From a virus: DNA of 64,000 nucleotides. The notes under the pieces are model-generated. The model did not search any database and was not told the origin of the DNA. It saw only the letters and a list, made by a program, of their open reading frames with translations. How positions within the stretch are numbered: the stretch's first letter is position 1; each line of letters starts with the position of its first letter. Shown piece by piece: positions 50,501-55,077 of the stretch. The position numbers were made by a program, and so were the translations under genes. The stretch is taken from the IMG/VR virus record IMGVR_UViG_3300045988_067909. One strand, given 5' to 3'.

Positions 50501-52282
50501 ATGAAAAAAGTTATTTTGACAGCAATGGTTATTGGCTCTTTGAGCCTAAATGTAATGGCAATTGATAACGCTACTGGGTCTGGTAGTGGTATCGCTTATG
50601 GTACAGGAAGTAGTGCTAATGGTACACATGATGTATCCATTGGTGTATCTTCTAAAGCCGAAAACTACACAAACCAAAATGGTTCGATAGCTATTGGTCA
50701 TAAAGCTCATACTGAACTTATGGCTGGTGGTGTTGAAGCAGCATTTGGTTTTGGTCAAACTACATATAGTGGGAGCGAATTCTCATCTGCACGTGTCCCA
50801 GCTGACCCATCTAAAGTTATTGGTGCAGTAGCTATTGGTAACAATACATATGCTCGTACAGGTTCTACTATGGTTGGTTCTCATAACTACCATGGTGAAA
50901 TTGGTGATGTTACCATTAATACAGATAAAGATGAAACAGGCACTAGAAGCCAAGCATTAAATGTATATGCAACTAATATTGGTGCAAATAGCTTCAGTAA
51001 TGGTGCTTTAACTACATCTACTGGTGCTTATAATATTATTTCTAGTTCCTATACTGGTGGTAGATTCTCTACACCATCTCAAAATCTAGGTGCTACTATT
51101 ACAGGTGCTATGAATAGTATTGAATCTAAAACTGCACAAGGTATTGGCTCTGGTTGGTTTGCTGATAGAACTGGTGTTGGTGTAGCTAATACTATTAATG
51201 GTCTAGCAAATAGAACTGCCAATACTAATGGCACTATTGTATTTGGTGCTGGTAATGAAGTCACAAATTCTATTGCAGAATTGACTGGTATTCCAAAAAA
51301 TACTGGTAACTCTGCTAAAGAGTTTGCTGGTAAACTAAGAGATGGTATCTCTAAGTCTAATGGTGGTGGTGCTACTATGGTAATTGGTGGTGGTAATAAA
51401 GCCGATTACACATTACGCACTTCTATGATTGGTGTAAATAACACAGTTACTGGTACGTCTGGAAATGAAAGCACAGACAACTTTGTAGTTGGTGTAAACA
51501 ATAATGCATCTAATGTATCTAATGCAATTATTGTTGGTAATAACCATAATGTAGCTAATGCAACACATACAGTTATTATTGGTTCTAGTGATAATGCTAC
51601 AAGCACAGTAGTAAATGATGCTGTAGCTATTGGTCATAATACAGAAGTATCTTACGTTGGTGGTGTAGCTCTTGGTGCACAATCTAAAGCTACAGTAAAT
51701 TCTGGTGTAGCTGGATATGATGTAGTAACTAAGACACAATCTACAAACAATAGCCCTGTATGGACTTCTACAGCTTCTGCTGTATCTGTTGGTGATGTAG
51801 ATAATAATGTGACTCGTCAAATCACATCTGTATCCGCAGGTACTAATGATACTGATGCAGTTAACGTTGCACAACTTAAACAATTAGACAGCAAAATCGA
51901 TACTGGTGTGTCTGATGTATTAAATCGTGCAAATAACTATACTGACACTCAAGTATCCAAAGTTGGTGCTAGAGCAGCAGCATTATCTGGATTACATTAT
52001 GTAGACTATAACCCTAACGATAAATGGAGCTTTGCTGCATCTTTAGGTGGTTATAAAGGTTCTACTGCTGGAGCTATTGGAGTCGCTTATCAACCAAATG
52101 AAAGCACTCTTATCCATGCAGGTGTAACTTTAACAGATAGTCCAATGTACAATATTGGTGCATCTTTCAAAGTAGGTAAACAAGATCCTACATTGAAAAC
52201 TAGCCGTATTGAAATGGCACAACAAATCAAAGATTTACAAGAGCAACTTGCTGAAATCAAAGCAGCTCTTGCAAATAAATAA
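50501..52282 (+). CDS. trimeric autotransporter adhesin (YadA-like), secreted
   Basis: Signal peptide MKKVILTAMVIGSLSLNVMA. Head repeats (SIAIGHKAHT, AVAIGNNTYA, AVAIGHNTEV). Neck/stalk motif SAGTNDTDAVNVAQLKQL. YadA-type beta-barrel anchor (KWSFAASLGGYKGSTAGAIGVAYQPNESTLIHAGVTLTD), then a short C-terminal coiled coil. Confidence 0.8.
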   Translation: MKKVILTAMVIGSLSLNVMAIDNATGSGSGIAYGTGSSANGTHDVSIGVSSKAENYTNQNGSIAIGHKAHTELMAGGVEAAFGFGQTTYSGSEFSSARVPADPSKVIGAVAIGNNTYARTGSTMVGSHNYHGEIGDVTINTDKDETGTRSQALNVYATNIGANSFSNGALTTSTGAYNIISSSYTGGRFSTPSQNLGATITGAMNSIESKTAQGIGSGWFADRTGVGVANTINGLANRTANTNGTIVFGAGNEVTNSIAELTGIPKNTGNSAKEFAGKLRDGISKSNGGGATMVIGGGNKADYTLRTSMIGVNNTVTGTSGNESTDNFVVGVNNNASNVSNAIIVGNNHNVANATHTVIIGSSDNATSTVVNDAVAIGHNTEVSYVGGVALGAQSKATVNSGVAGYDVVTKTQSTNNSPVWTSTASAVSVGDVDNNVTRQITSVSAGTNDTDAVNVAQLKQLDSKIDTGVSDVLNRANNYTDTQVSKVGARAAALSGLHYVDYNPNDKWSFAASLGGYKGSTAGAIGVAYQPNESTLIHAGVTLTDSPMYNIGASFKVGKQDPTLKTSRIEMAQQIKDLQEQLAEIKAALANK

Positions 52283-52294
52283 TTCTACCATGTA

Positions 52295-52332: not shown

Positions 52333-52359
52333 AGCATATAGTTAAAAGGAGACATTCAA

Positions 52360-55077
52360 ATGATGAACAACAAAGTTATTTTAACAGCAGCAATTTTAGG
52401 TACTTTGGTATCCGGTTCTGTATTTGCACAAGGATCTAATACTGGATACAATAATGTATCTAATGGAGATTATGGAACAGTATTTGGTAGTAATAATACT
52501 AATGAAACAGGTGCCACAAGTTCATTAGCTTTTGGTGATGGAAATGTTGTAAAACAAGCAAACTCTATGGCTTTTGGCCAAGGTAACTTATCCGACGGCG
52601 AAAATAGTTTCGTCGGCGGTGATAAAGCTAAAGCTGTAGGTCGTGATACATTTGCGTTCGGCTCTTCTGCAGAAGCTCTAACTGAGTATACCATTGCCAT
52701 TGGTTCTCAAGCTAGAACTATTGGCTATAACACTTTGGCTATTGGTAATGGTGCTACAGTATCTGGTCCATCCTCTATTGCTATTGGTAAAACAAACAAT
52801 GTTACAGGTGAAAATTCTGTAGCTATTGGTGCTAATAATGGCACTATTAAAGGTGAACAAGCTGTAGTAGTTGGTTATAATAATAATATGACTACTGCTG
52901 ATCAAGAGCAATTGATCTTTGGTTCTAATTCTGTCACTAGTGGCCAAGGTTCTATCGTTGTAGGTACTCATGGTCAAGCTACTGCTGTTGATGCTGTTGC
53001 ATTAGGTAATAATACTATTGCTGACGTTCAAAATGGCGTCGCAATCGGCACAAATTCTGTAACAGAATCAGCTGTTGGTACATCCAATATTAAGGATAAT
53101 ACAACAGACATCCGTTTCAGTAATTCCACTTATGCAGGTTCCACACCTGATAGTGTTGTAAGCTTTGGTGCTAATGGTCGTGCTGGTGCTGGTGGTGTAA
53201 CTAGCTATACACGTCAGCTACAAAATGTAGCAGCAGGTCGTGTATCTTCCACATCTACAGATGCTATTAATGGTAGCCAATTGTACGATGTTGCTCTTGA
53301 AGCACAAAAGTACAATACTATGGCTGATGGATCCAATACTACAGTAGTAGCTACCGATAACGCTTACGGAAGAAAAGAATTCAAAGTAAACGTTAATAAG
53401 GATTTGGTAGACATGAACTCTGCAGCATTTGGAAAGAATACAGATAGCAAACATACAGTAGTTAATACTGATGGTACTATTGTATTTGATGGTGATAAAG
53501 ATACTAAGTATAGCGGTAACGGTTTAACTATCGAAGACCGTAATACTTTGGATGCTGCATCCTATAATATTAATGGTATGACAGCTTCTGATGCTAATGG
53601 TACAGTAAGCTTCACTACAACTAATATTGATGCTGGCAATAACCAAATTCACAACGTTAAAGCTGGTACAGCTGATACAGATGCGGTTAATGTTGATCAA
53701 ATGAATAAAGCTATCGAAGCCAATAAAGCAGTTGAATCCGTGGTTGCCGACAATCAAGTCGACAATATCGCAGCAGTACGTGTAACAAATGGCAAATCCA
53801 CTGGTGATGCAAATGCACAATATGGTGTATATGTATCCCGTTCTACTGTGGATGCTATTGCCAAGGCTTCTAACCGTTTTGCAGGAGACGACGTTATTAA
53901 TGTTACTCGTTGGGATGCTCCTGCTAATGTAGCAGATCTTACTACATTCAAATACAACGGCGAAAAAGCCGCAACTAAAACTCCATTGACTTACAAAGCT
54001 AATGGTAAAGATGCTAAACAAGTTATGCTTGCTAATGGCTTAGACTTCACTAATGGTAAAAACACTACAGCTACTACAGATGCTAATGGCGTAGTTAAAT
54101 ACTCTGTGAATGATAACTTGAATGGTATGAAATCCGTTAACTTCGATGGTGGTACTACAGTGAACAATGATGGCTTAACTATTAACAATGGCCCATCTGT
54201 AACTAAAGATGGTATTGATGCTGGTAATAAAACGATTACTAATGTAGCTCCTGGTCGTGTAGAAGCGGGTTCTACTGATGCAATTAACGGTAGCCAATTG
54301 AATGACGCAGCTCAACGTATTAGCAACCGTTATGATGCAGCTATTGCTAATAACCAACGTGAAATCAGTAAAGTAGGTGCTCGTGCAGCAGCTATGGCTA
54401 ACTTACATTATCAAGACTTCAATGCTGATGATAAATGGAGCTTCGCTGCAGGTTATGGTCATTATAAAGGTCAAAATGCTGGTGCATTAGGTGTAGCATA
54501 TCAACCAAATGAAAATACTATGATTAGTGTATCTTCCACTATTGGTAAAGATGCTATGATTGGTGCTGGTGTATCCATGAAGTTTGGTAAAGCATCTAAG
54601 ATGAATGCTAATAAACAAGTAGCTATGGCTAAAGAAATTCAAGAACTTCGTGCAATCGTAGCAGCTCAAAATGCTAAGATCGATGCATTAGTCGATCATG
54701 CTATGGGACGTAACGAAGCAATTACTGATGTAGTATTCCCTGATGTACCTGAAAATCATTGGGCATATATGATGGTACAAGACCTTGCTTACAAAGGTAT
54801 TGTAGTTGGTTATCCAGATAATAATTTCTCTGGTGACCGCACTCTAACTCGCTATGAATTTGCTGTAGCATTAGACCGTGCTATTTCTGCTGGTTATATG
54901 AATCCAGAATTGGGTCGTGCTATTAAAGAATTCAAACCTGAATTAGACAGCATCTATGCTAATATGCGTTTCCGTGTAGATCGTGAATCTGGTAAAGATG
55001 GTAGTGTAAATAAAGTTGAACGTGTACGTGTTAATAAAGACAGTGCTCGTGATAACTATGGCACTATCGTAAAATAA
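52360..55077 (+). CDS. trimeric autotransporter adhesin with C-terminal coiled coil and SLH domain
   Basis: Signal peptide MMNNKVILTAAILGTLVSGSVFA. Head repeats. Stalk motifs VAAGRVSSTSTDAINGSQLYDV, VKAGTADTDAVNVDQMNKA and VAPGRVEAGSTDAINGSQLNDA. YadA-type anchor (KWSFAAGYGHYKGQNAGALGVAYQPNENTMISV). SLH domain HWAYMMVQDLAYKGIVVGYPDNNFSGDRTLTRYEFAVALDRA. Confidence 0.8.
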   Translation: MMNNKVILTAAILGTLVSGSVFAQGSNTGYNNVSNGDYGTVFGSNNTNETGATSSLAFGDGNVVKQANSMAFGQGNLSDGENSFVGGDKAKAVGRDTFAFGSSAEALTEYTIAIGSQARTIGYNTLAIGNGATVSGPSSIAIGKTNNVTGENSVAIGANNGTIKGEQAVVVGYNNNMTTADQEQLIFGSNSVTSGQGSIVVGTHGQATAVDAVALGNNTIADVQNGVAIGTNSVTESAVGTSNIKDNTTDIRFSNSTYAGSTPDSVVSFGANGRAGAGGVTSYTRQLQNVAAGRVSSTSTDAINGSQLYDVALEAQKYNTMADGSNTTVVATDNAYGRKEFKVNVNKDLVDMNSAAFGKNTDSKHTVVNTDGTIVFDGDKDTKYSGNGLTIEDRNTLDAASYNINGMTASDANGTVSFTTTNIDAGNNQIHNVKAGTADTDAVNVDQMNKAIEANKAVESVVADNQVDNIAAVRVTNGKSTGDANAQYGVYVSRSTVDAIAKASNRFAGDDVINVTRWDAPANVADLTTFKYNGEKAATKTPLTYKANGKDAKQVMLANGLDFTNGKNTTATTDANGVVKYSVNDNLNGMKSVNFDGGTTVNNDGLTINNGPSVTKDGIDAGNKTITNVAPGRVEAGSTDAINGSQLNDAAQRISNRYDAAIANNQREISKVGARAAAMANLHYQDFNADDKWSFAAGYGHYKGQNAGALGVAYQPNENTMISVSSTIGKDAMIGAGVSMKFGKASKMNANKQVAMAKEIQELRAIVAAQNAKIDALVDHAMGRNEAITDVVFPDVPENHWAYMMVQDLAYKGIVVGYPDNNFSGDRTLTRYEFAVALDRAISAGYMNPELGRAIKEFKPELDSIYANMRFRVDRESGKDGSVNKVERVRVNKDSARDNYGTIVK

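Follow-up and report, generated by a model that had tools for sequence, protein, structure and literature searches.

The DNA analysed here is a stretch of 64,000 nucleotides from a virus (IMG/VR record IMGVR_UViG_3300045988_067909), and it is this whole stretch that we call the window. Two adjacent open reading frames (ORFs) on its + strand, 50501-52282 (593 aa) and 52360-55077 (905 aa), encode proteins, here named TAA1 and TAA2, that on the evidence of their domains are trimeric autotransporter adhesins (TAAs): each combines a predicted signal peptide with a head, a stalk and a YadA-type anchor (Table 1). The source of the window is a jumbo phage with a genome of about 260 kb, which is common and uncultured.

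Domain architecture and host clade

An initial annotation of this DNA had already read the two ORFs as TAAs, and both were recovered with exactly the ends it gave; the matches in Pfam and in the Protein Data Bank (PDB) agree with that reading. Pfam gathering scores served as threshold and all reported matches lie above them (the cut-offs are 22.7 bits for the anchor family PF03895 and 20.8 bits for the SLH family PF00395). Signal peptides were assessed by eye and by hydropathy, i.e. by a basic n-region and a small-x-small cleavage motif. By these signs both N-termini resemble ordinary Sec signal peptides, which had also been predicted initially, and the 12-residue hydropathy peaks are 2.17 in TAA1 and 2.55 in TAA2; a similar N-terminus is found in every full-length variant of TAA2. 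The YadA-like heads that the annotation described are recognised by Pfam in TAA2 only. In TAA1 no Pfam YadA_head match was found at E<=0.1, but residues 345-481 match the solved heads of AtaA (3wp8, E 2.4e-13) and YadA (1p9h, E 1.5e-6), the NCBIfam model YadA_autotrans matches residues 364-485, and repeats of the SxAxGxxA type are visible. The canonical stalk motif and the YadA-type anchor are borne out in both proteins by profile searches, and residues 479-557 of TAA1 match the solved YadA anchor 2lme. Partial NCBIfam matches to the YadA, Ata, EmaA, BimA and Vomp models all score far under the equivalog cut-offs, so that the two proteins are to be regarded as members of the family and not as orthologues of any named adhesin.

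Both proteins continue past the last barrel strand, TAA1 by about 36 aa without an SLH domain and TAA2 by about 160 aa. The coiled coil and SLH domain that had been noticed behind the anchor of TAA2 are found there by Pfam and by reading the heptads, and residues 783-897 match the solved SLH-domain proteins 8bys, 8bym and 8bz2 (E ~2e-10). In Veillonella parvula all TAAs bear an additional C-terminal SLH or coiled-coil domain (Bechon 2020, PMC7549365), and a global survey of TAAs distinguishes two types of periplasmic domain, a short one with a coiled coil of less than 100 aa and a long one in which a coiled coil is joined to a peptidoglycan-binding domain (Dorison 2026, bioRxiv 10.64898/2026.01.22.700529). 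In the long type this peptidoglycan-binding domain is an SLH domain only in Negativicutes (bioRxiv 10.64898/2026.01.22.700529). Judged by its sequence, the extension of TAA1 is of the short, coiled-coil-only type of Negativicutes TAAs, and that of TAA2, with coiled coil and SLH domain, is of the long type. The architecture had been described in the initial annotation as that of Negativicutes adhesins, and the order of anchor, coiled coil and SLH domain is indeed reported only for that group.

The annotation had further suggested a diderm Firmicute as host and a homology search to place its clade. When the C-terminal module of TAA2 (aa 621-905) was compared with species-representative genomes, a chromosomal TAA of Megasphaera matched with 49% over the module and the same domain order, and Veillonella genes matched at 39-46%. 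The Megasphaera gene adjoins peptide ABC transporter genes, and its product shares with TAA2 the tail that follows the SLH domain (KEFKPELD...RVRVN). A HMMER search of 1.84 billion cluster representatives gave 653 proteins at E<=1e-30, and the named members of the closest clusters are all Negativicutes (Mitsuokella, Megasphaera stantonii, M. hexanoica and Phascolarctobacterium). The named cellular relatives of the module come from Megasphaera, Veillonella, Mitsuokella and Phascolarctobacterium, all of them Negativicutes, and their identity is flat, at ~40-54%, over three orders of this group. These similarities support Negativicutes as the host clade; a genus cannot be called because the identity is so even, and our attempt at placement on that level failed, the four genera being alike in this respect. 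The two genes themselves lie on a jumbo-phage genome and not on a Negativicutes genome. While the proteins are ordinary members of a described family, this setting is unexpected and apparently systematic.

The architecture supports the view that both proteins are built for Sec export and insertion into the outer membrane and not for the virion, in agreement with the initial annotation. A different reading would make them virion fibres with YadA-like trimeric folds that serve in host recognition. In favour of this reading, two families of unknown function, phrog_20057 and phrog_10009, match the stalk regions, and in two of the other TAA-bearing contigs (L114 and L100) the TAA gene adjoins virion structural genes, though it is divergently transcribed. 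But a signal peptide, a membrane anchor and a periplasmic peptidoglycan-binding domain would be useless in a tailed particle, which has no membrane. Moreover, the TAA genes of the window have small early-type units as neighbours and stand over 28 kb away from the tail-fibre block (ORFs within 10487-22272 match tail-fibre families), and no similarity of the TAAs to tail-fibre ORFs or to any other ORF of the window was found. A structural role is for these reasons very unlikely, and we give it hardly any credence. A receptor-mimic link between TAAs and tail fibres was also considered and dropped, as the two sets of ORFs share no similarity.

Table 1. Features of the TAA locus and the RNA polymerase subunit genes of the window (a slash marks predicted signal peptide cleavage)
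Feature	Position	Strand	Basis
Promoter-like motif TTGGTTGTATAATATAAC upstream of TAA1	50332..50349	+	Enriched pattern; AR9-like
9-bp stem-loop right after the motif	50352..50378	+	Only stable element in minimum-free-energy and centroid folds of the leader
Conserved 5' leader of the TAA unit	50379..50500	+	Invariant AGTATATTATGCAA, internal AAGGAGG; alignment of eight relatives
TAA1 signal peptide	50501..50560	+	aa 1-20, predicted cleavage VMA/ID, MKKVILTAMVIGSLSLNVMA/ID; by eye and hydropathy
TAA1 passenger head, beta-roll repeats	50561..51817	+	Structure matches and NCBIfam
TAA1 neck/stalk with SAGTNDTDAVNVAQL	51818..52000	+	Pfam YadA_stalk aa 440-481, 31.8 bits
TAA1 YadA-type beta-barrel anchor	52001..52171	+	Pfam YadA_anchor aa 502-556, 33.5 bits
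TAA1 short periplasmic coiled coil (~36 aa) and stop codon	52172..52282	+	Heptads in IEMAQQIKDLQEQLAEIKAALANK
14-bp hairpin and T-run between TAA1 and TAA2	52295..52332	+	Terminator scan; hairpin 52295-52325
TAA2 signal peptide	52360..52428	+	aa 1-23, predicted cleavage VFA/QG, MMNNKVILTAAILGTLVSGSVFA/QG; by eye and hydropathy
TAA2 YadA-like head	52429..53211	+	Pfam YadA_head x4 (59 bits); matches UspA1 heads 3ntn/3pr7
TAA2 neck/stalk modules	53212..54399	+	Pfam YadA_stalk x3, 77.6 bits; NCBIfam EmaA stalk region, 192.8 bits
TAA2 YadA-type beta-barrel anchor	54400..54594	+	Pfam YadA_anchor aa 688-742, 40.5 bits
TAA2 periplasmic coiled coil	54595..54729	+	Heptads read from sequence, Asn at a core position
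TAA2 SLH domain, C-terminal tail and stop codon	54730..55077	+	Pfam SLH aa 793-835, 34.5 bits
12-bp terminator-like hairpin and T-run after TAA2	55099..55139	+	Terminator scan, hairpin 55099-55125; right edge of recombined segment
RNA polymerase beta/beta'-like split subunit	27861-29084		phrog_2962, 241 bits
RNA polymerase beta/beta'-like split subunit	58741-60285		phrog_2987, 216 bits

The jumbo phage and TAAs in related contigs

Many of the contigs in public assemblies that carry TAA2 homologues measure 255-272 kb, and contigs of the same lineage in IMG/VR measure 259.7-267.4 kb. Dozens of independent gene-bearing contigs of 255-272 kb lie above the 200 kb that mark a jumbo phage, and near-identical homologues of TAA2 (96-98%) occur more than 120 times in public assemblies. 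The beta' fragment encoded in the window is 29% identical to its counterparts in Yersinia phage phiR1-37 and in the Bacillus phages BpSp and Goe21; as far as sequence similarity goes, the split multisubunit RNA polymerases are distant kin of the phiR1-37 subunits and those of large Bacillus phages. The phages with split RNA polymerases of the phiKZ/AR9 type are known as a virulent group. Megablast of positions 44000-58000 against deposited phages gave no match, and when TAA2 was compared by tblastn with 50,697 records of deposited phages, the sole results were three weak and partial matches, all of which leave the SLH region uncovered. Our search of the literature on jumbo phages with TAAs or YadA, and on Veillonella jumbo phages, found neither this phage nor the trait described. 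The phage probably comes from the human mouth: identifiers of the 7000000xxx series among uncultivated virus genomes and a 'GOLT18' record follow naming conventions that we take to stand for human, largely oral metagenomes.

A 16-kb contig that is syntenic with the window and whose RNA polymerase subunit is 99% identical (L004, CALISH010000016.1) has been binned in a metagenome-assembled genome of an 'uncultured Solobacterium'; it is evidently a mis-binned fragment of the window's phage lineage. Within the window, at least six radical-SAM paralogues (phrog_1802) are interleaved at 29790-42392 with proteins of about 400 aa and of unknown family.

Related TAAs are encoded in 115 stretches found by a scan of IMG/VR. 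Apart from the lineage of the window they comprise several low-GC groups (0.32-0.34), with SLH-bearing TAAs of 1120-1133 aa on contigs of 237-241 kb, SLH-bearing TAAs of 707 aa on contigs of 215-260 kb, and TAAs of 588-912 aa with coiled-coil-only extensions on contigs of up to 254 kb. Beyond the window's own lineage, the closest relatives of the TAA2 module are found on other large AT-rich contigs, namely P0138 (58% identical, 204.5-kb contig) and P0140 (53% identical, 228-kb contig); near the former lie genes for a thymidylate synthase, a dihydrofolate reductase, a phage-type DNA polymerase and a phrog_3004 virion protein. AT-rich jumbo-phage contigs outside the window's lineage (among them L032, L060, L098, L114, L101 and L080) carry one to three TAAs at other loci. 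Phage hallmark genes flank the TAA loci of L032, L098, L114, L080 and L100, and in the last four of these the flanking genes match phage topoisomerase and virion-structural families; L060 and L101 are linked to phages by their similarity to L032 and to the window only. Signal peptides are plain in all phage copies examined, and many cellular relatives have leaders of the extended signal peptide region (ESPR) type.

The arrangement of these genes varies. Three TAAs stand in tandem in L101 (3745-9488 of a 253.9-kb contig), between radical-SAM genes to which the window holds homologues (37-47% identity), and three others in L080 (44-6753 of a 194.9-kb contig); both loci differ from that of the window. 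In another pair of contigs, two TAA genes agree over their 3' 1.4 kb with 98.1% DNA identity, and the match includes 78 nt past the stop codon (L033 10547-11956, L034 11021-12430). One of them lies at the end of a phage-like contig of 228 kb, whose flank has a GC content of 0.29, and the other on a contig of a bacterial chromosome (GC 0.415), which means either a recent exchange between phage and host or a chimeric assembly at the contig end.

Transcription signals, conservation and exchange at the locus

The promoter-like motif upstream of TAA1 belongs to a pattern, WTRGTTRTATAHTATAAY, of which the window contains nine copies (1.18 expected), always on the + strand and before coding regions (at 22417, 27078, 47992, 49535, 50332, 55187, 55676, 56324 and 62265). 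Eight copies can be assigned to a downstream ORF, 57-257 nt 5' of its start; six of the nine lie within 47992-56324, and most immediately precede a hairpin. The pattern resembles the early promoter consensus of phage AR9, AAATATATATTAT-(6N)-G, which the injected virion polymerase recognises (PMC5312081), and it probably defines the early transcription units of the present phage. No sigma-70-like site was found upstream of either TAA gene, nor are such sites enriched in the region (28 found, 29.1 expected). A second candidate promoter, AGTWTATTATGCAA, was rejected, since it is not enriched in the window (6 found, 4.87 expected).

The stem-loop behind the motif is probably the 5' end of the transcript. 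All relatives keep the motif, a hairpin and the invariant AGTATATTATGCAA 5' of their first TAA gene, and in diverged relatives the hairpin stands at the same place with another sequence (GTATCCAG/CTGGATAT). The AAGGAGG of the leader, within 50420-50440 of the window, is strongly Shine-Dalgarno-like, and no start codon follows it closely enough; every relative has this sequence, the diverged ones in a shifted place. The fold of the whole leader is no more stable than that of shuffled sequences (z = 0.10), Rfam gave only chance-level matches on 49900-56700, and RNAalifold was uninformative for the post-promoter hairpins, as those of the diverged lineages do not align by column.

The claim that each gene has its own upstream region and terminator holds in part. 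Both hairpins are present (52295-52325 with its T-run, and 55099-55125), and TAA1 has the motif and the leader; upstream of TAA2, however, there is only a 77-nt spacer that consists largely of the first hairpin and is without the promoter-like motif. In L022 and L023, which lack TAA1, a homologous hairpin lies in the leader directly 5' of the TAA2-type gene. This arrangement leads us to infer that the two genes form one transcription unit, which would be expressed early and in which the hairpin between them would act as an attenuator. The hairpin after TAA2 is duplicated at 55616-55642, behind an inserted gene of 117 aa (55253-55606, phrog_4074, function unknown). This gene lies between two 53-nt terminator copies that are 96% identical (55092-55144 and 55609-55661), has its own promoter-like motif, is found among the relatives only in L029, and has the appearance of a small cassette that entered at the terminator. 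Further downstream, a near-perfect hairpin (56384-56455, 34-nt arms, 79% complementary, 4-nt loop) lies in the leader of 257 nt that separates ORF 56581-57348 from the motif at 56324; the sole Rfam match of this hairpin is to a miRNA model at chance level.

For a comparison of the locus, 20 related contigs with an RNA polymerase subunit at 97-100% identity were used. Wherever one of them reaches from the homologue of 49944-50315 to that of 55733-57348, it has a TAA2-type gene in between, and TAA1 is confined to one sublineage of the related contigs; a full-length homologue of TAA1 with 59% identity is encoded by L114. The TAA2-type anchor is 90-100% identical in all variants of the lineage, and where they are kept the coiled coil (93-100%) and the SLH domain (92-100%) are similarly constant. 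The passengers of TAA2 type range in size from 652 to 1342 aa, the identity of the heads between phage variants is 26-96%, and stalk modules have been duplicated or deleted between TAA2 variants of 713-1342 aa. In L004 a single TAA of 652 aa has kept the anchor and coiled coil and lost the SLH domain. Pairwise ratios of nonsynonymous to synonymous substitution rates (dN/dS) are 0.08-0.16 for TAA2 and 0.04-0.08 for TAA1 at dS 0.11-0.24, and within the close lineage the C-terminal module of TAA2 reaches 0.01-0.04; these values indicate that both genes are under purifying selection.

The segment 52296-55139, from the hairpin between the genes to the terminator, is 91.9% identical to L023, while its flanks are 72-78% identical. 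The intergenic hairpin forms the left edge of this recombined segment, and in L001 a block of high identity likewise ends at 55139. The pattern of identity indicates that the TAA2 cassette moves between phage genomes. In L023 (5347-7482) and L025 (4703-6838) a dextranase-type gene of family GH66 (711 aa, PF13199, 362 bits) stands directly 3' of the TAA gene; its product has no obvious signal peptide and could find its substrate in the streptococcal glucan of plaque once the cell has lysed.

One may ask whether the two genes are non-functional hitch-hiking DNA that was recently captured from the host. The GC content of the region (0.37-0.39) does exceed the window mean of 0.33. The GC content of third codon positions (GC3), at 0.152 in TAA1 and 0.208 in TAA2, is nevertheless as low as in other genes of the window (0.18-0.29), and because of this phage-like GC3 the raised overall GC reflects a Gly/Ala-rich protein and its amino-acid composition, not recent import. 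Well over 100 assemblies contain the ORFs in intact form, dN/dS lies far under 1, and the closest cellular homologues are only ~40-54% identical. Recent capture without function is already contradicted by the selection and codon analyses, and we consider it extremely improbable.

The initial annotation had called the two genes terminator-bounded morons, a label that holds only in part. The restriction of TAA1 to one sublineage and the hairpin terminators agree with this label; the presence of a TAA2-type gene in every spanning contig, the phage-like GC3, dN/dS of 0.04-0.16 and the lack of a sigma-70-like promoter do not. A moron is expected to deviate in nucleotide composition, and neither gene does so by its GC3; it is also expected to be an autonomous unit with a host-type promoter and terminator, and here the terminators are accompanied by no sigma-70-like site upstream. 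In its stronger form the idea would be lysogenic conversion, in which a prophage expresses the genes by the RNA polymerase of the host and the lysogen benefits. The confinement of TAA1 to a sublineage, the exchange of the hairpin-bounded TAA2 cassette between diverged genomes and the existence of prophage-borne TAAs in E. coli (the Eib proteins) would fit it. On the other side, the split RNA polymerases are of the phiKZ/AR9 type, of which the group is known as virulent, most long gene-bearing contigs are free-standing at 255-272 kb, no sigma-70-like promoter lies 5' of either gene and the motif there is common to neighbouring phage genes, the codon GC3 is not foreign, and the TAA2-type gene is never absent from the locus. 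The type of polymerase, the free-standing contigs and the phage-type promoter-like motif make lysogeny, which the annotation had allowed for, distinctly unlikely.

Proposed function and comparison with known systems

This phage carries two intact, selectively maintained adhesins of a type made only by double-membraned Firmicutes, and related jumbo phages carry one to three; it is therefore very likely that these viruses alter the surface of infected cells. We think it reasonably likely that, as had been proposed, the Negativicutes-type TAAs carried by this ~260-kb jumbo phage make the infected cell adhesive. Transcription would start at the phage-type, early-like promoter at 50332, pass through the conserved leader and TAA1, read through the hairpin at 52295 into TAA2 and stop at 55099. 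The products would be exported by the host Sec system, lose their signal peptides and trimerise, as their architecture and established type Vc secretion suggest. The host's beta-barrel assembly machinery (BAM) would then insert the 12-stranded YadA barrel into the outer membrane, so that the infected cell presents head and stalk on its surface. The C-terminal extensions would stay in the periplasm, where the SLH domain of TAA2 would bind peptidoglycan and both extensions would protect the adhesin from degradation. This last step follows work on V. parvula, where the C-terminal extensions shield adhesins from degradation and the SLH domain governs localisation. Least certain are the final steps, in which the infected cell may adhere to surfaces, partner species or uninfected hosts in a biofilm exposed to flow, survive in place through a long jumbo-phage cycle and burst next to new hosts. 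The diversification of passengers on a constant translocator would then track varied binding targets.

We favour a role in adhesion or aggregation because such roles have been demonstrated for the cellular family (VtaA drives autoaggregation in V. parvula, Hag1 drives coaggregation in V. atypica; PMC7549365), because TAAs occur in arrays in L080 and L101, and because a GH66 gene stands beside the TAA gene in L023 and L025, which fits a cargo locus tied to biofilms. Several points weigh against this proposal. The promoter class is assigned by resemblance only, read-through into TAA2 is an assumption, and the signal peptides were assessed by eye and hydropathy only. The homology of the heads (to UspA1, YadA, AtaA and CbpF) is generic and points to no ligand. 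Stickiness of the infected cell might also be disadvantageous. The inspected 64 kb are part of a genome of ~260 kb, and an integrase may lie elsewhere. Finally, the same anatomy would be just as compatible with a role in shielding or exclusion.

Such a role would consist in a dense layer of trimeric fibres on the infected cell, and later on its debris, that keeps competitors or the phage's own progeny from receptors in the outer membrane. An early-type promoter motif suits exclusion functions, the gene is kept across the lineage while its exposed passenger diversifies fast, as in an arms race, and TAAs such as YadA do form dense surface layers. The known exclusion proteins of the outer membrane (T5 Llp, Cor) are small, however; arrays of up to three distinct TAAs with varied heads look like a binding repertoire rather than a passive coat, and the GH66 gene at the same locus in relatives points to the biology of biofilms. 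We regard superinfection exclusion or receptor masking as unlikely, though it deserves consideration.

The SLH domain suggests yet another function, in which the trimer adds tethers between outer membrane and peptidoglycan in the manner of OmpM and keeps the swollen cell intact until lysis, the passenger being secondary. The SLH region does resemble solved SLH proteins, and no part of TAA2 is better conserved than its C-terminal module (dN/dS 0.01-0.04). But TAA1 and many coiled-coil-only phage TAAs have no SLH domain, the L004 variant that lost it still keeps the gene, and the passengers are under purifying selection as well (dN/dS ~0.1). Reinforcement of the envelope as the main purpose is, in our opinion, improbable.

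It is useful to compare the adhesive TAAs that we propose for the phage with systems already known. Closest are the Veillonella adhesins VtaA-VtaI and Hag1 (PMC7549365; bioRxiv 10.64898/2026.01.22.700529), in which the parts follow each other in the same order, from the signal peptide to a short coiled coil as in TAA1 or to a coiled coil and SLH domain as in TAA2. The mode of evolution, by domain swaps and duplications, is also the same. The phage TAAs, with 593-1342 aa, do not attain the length of those in Veillonella, which can run to several thousand aa, and they are encoded by jumbo phages. In comparison with cellular TAAs, many of which have leaders of the ESPR type, they have plain short signal peptides and phage codon usage, and their C-terminal module is ~40-54% identical. 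The solved SLH tethers of Negativicutes of the OmpM/Mep45 type (8bys, 8bym, 8bz2) align with the SLH domain and adjacent helix of TAA2 (aa 783-897), and the presumed role is alike, i.e. non-covalent binding of an outer-membrane trimer to peptidoglycan. The order of the parts is reversed: SLH domain, stalk and porin barrel in OmpM/Mep45, but YadA translocator barrel, coiled coil and SLH domain in TAA2.

Among phage-borne proteins, the immunoglobulin-binding Eib TAAs of E. coli are encoded by prophages, and they are likewise phage-carried trimeric autotransporters on a bacterial surface. They differ in that they belong to temperate lambdoid prophages of a proteobacterium, are expressed in the lysogen and have no periplasmic extension or SLH domain, whereas the present phage is probably a virulent jumbo phage of a diderm Firmicute. 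Lom and Bor of lambda, Llp of T5 and Cor are phage genes too, and their products in the host outer membrane alter adhesion, serum resistance or adsorption. These are small monomers or lipoproteins, while TAA1 and TAA2 are large trimeric fibres that are conserved and diversified across a group of jumbo phages.

Taken further, and only as a tentative suggestion that may well prove wrong, these phages could form a probably virulent group of jumbo phages of human oral Negativicutes that carries its own diversifying 'virocell adhesins'. Expressed from early promoters of the virion polymerase, these would re-tailor the adhesion of the infected cell in the biofilm and hold it near fresh hosts until lysis, complemented in some genomes by a dextranase released on lysis.

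In Veillonella and related bacteria, adhesion, aggregation and the formation of biofilms are determined in large part by TAAs. Should abundant jumbo phages of the mouth install TAAs of their own on the cells, infection would alter who sticks to whom in the communities of tongue and plaque. To our knowledge, very few phages of diderm Firmicutes are known, and the SLH-bearing architecture, used as a marker of the host, places an uncultured and widespread group of jumbo phages with these bacteria. With its conserved translocator and swappable passengers, the group also offers a natural set of short, expressible adhesins for the genetics of V. parvula.

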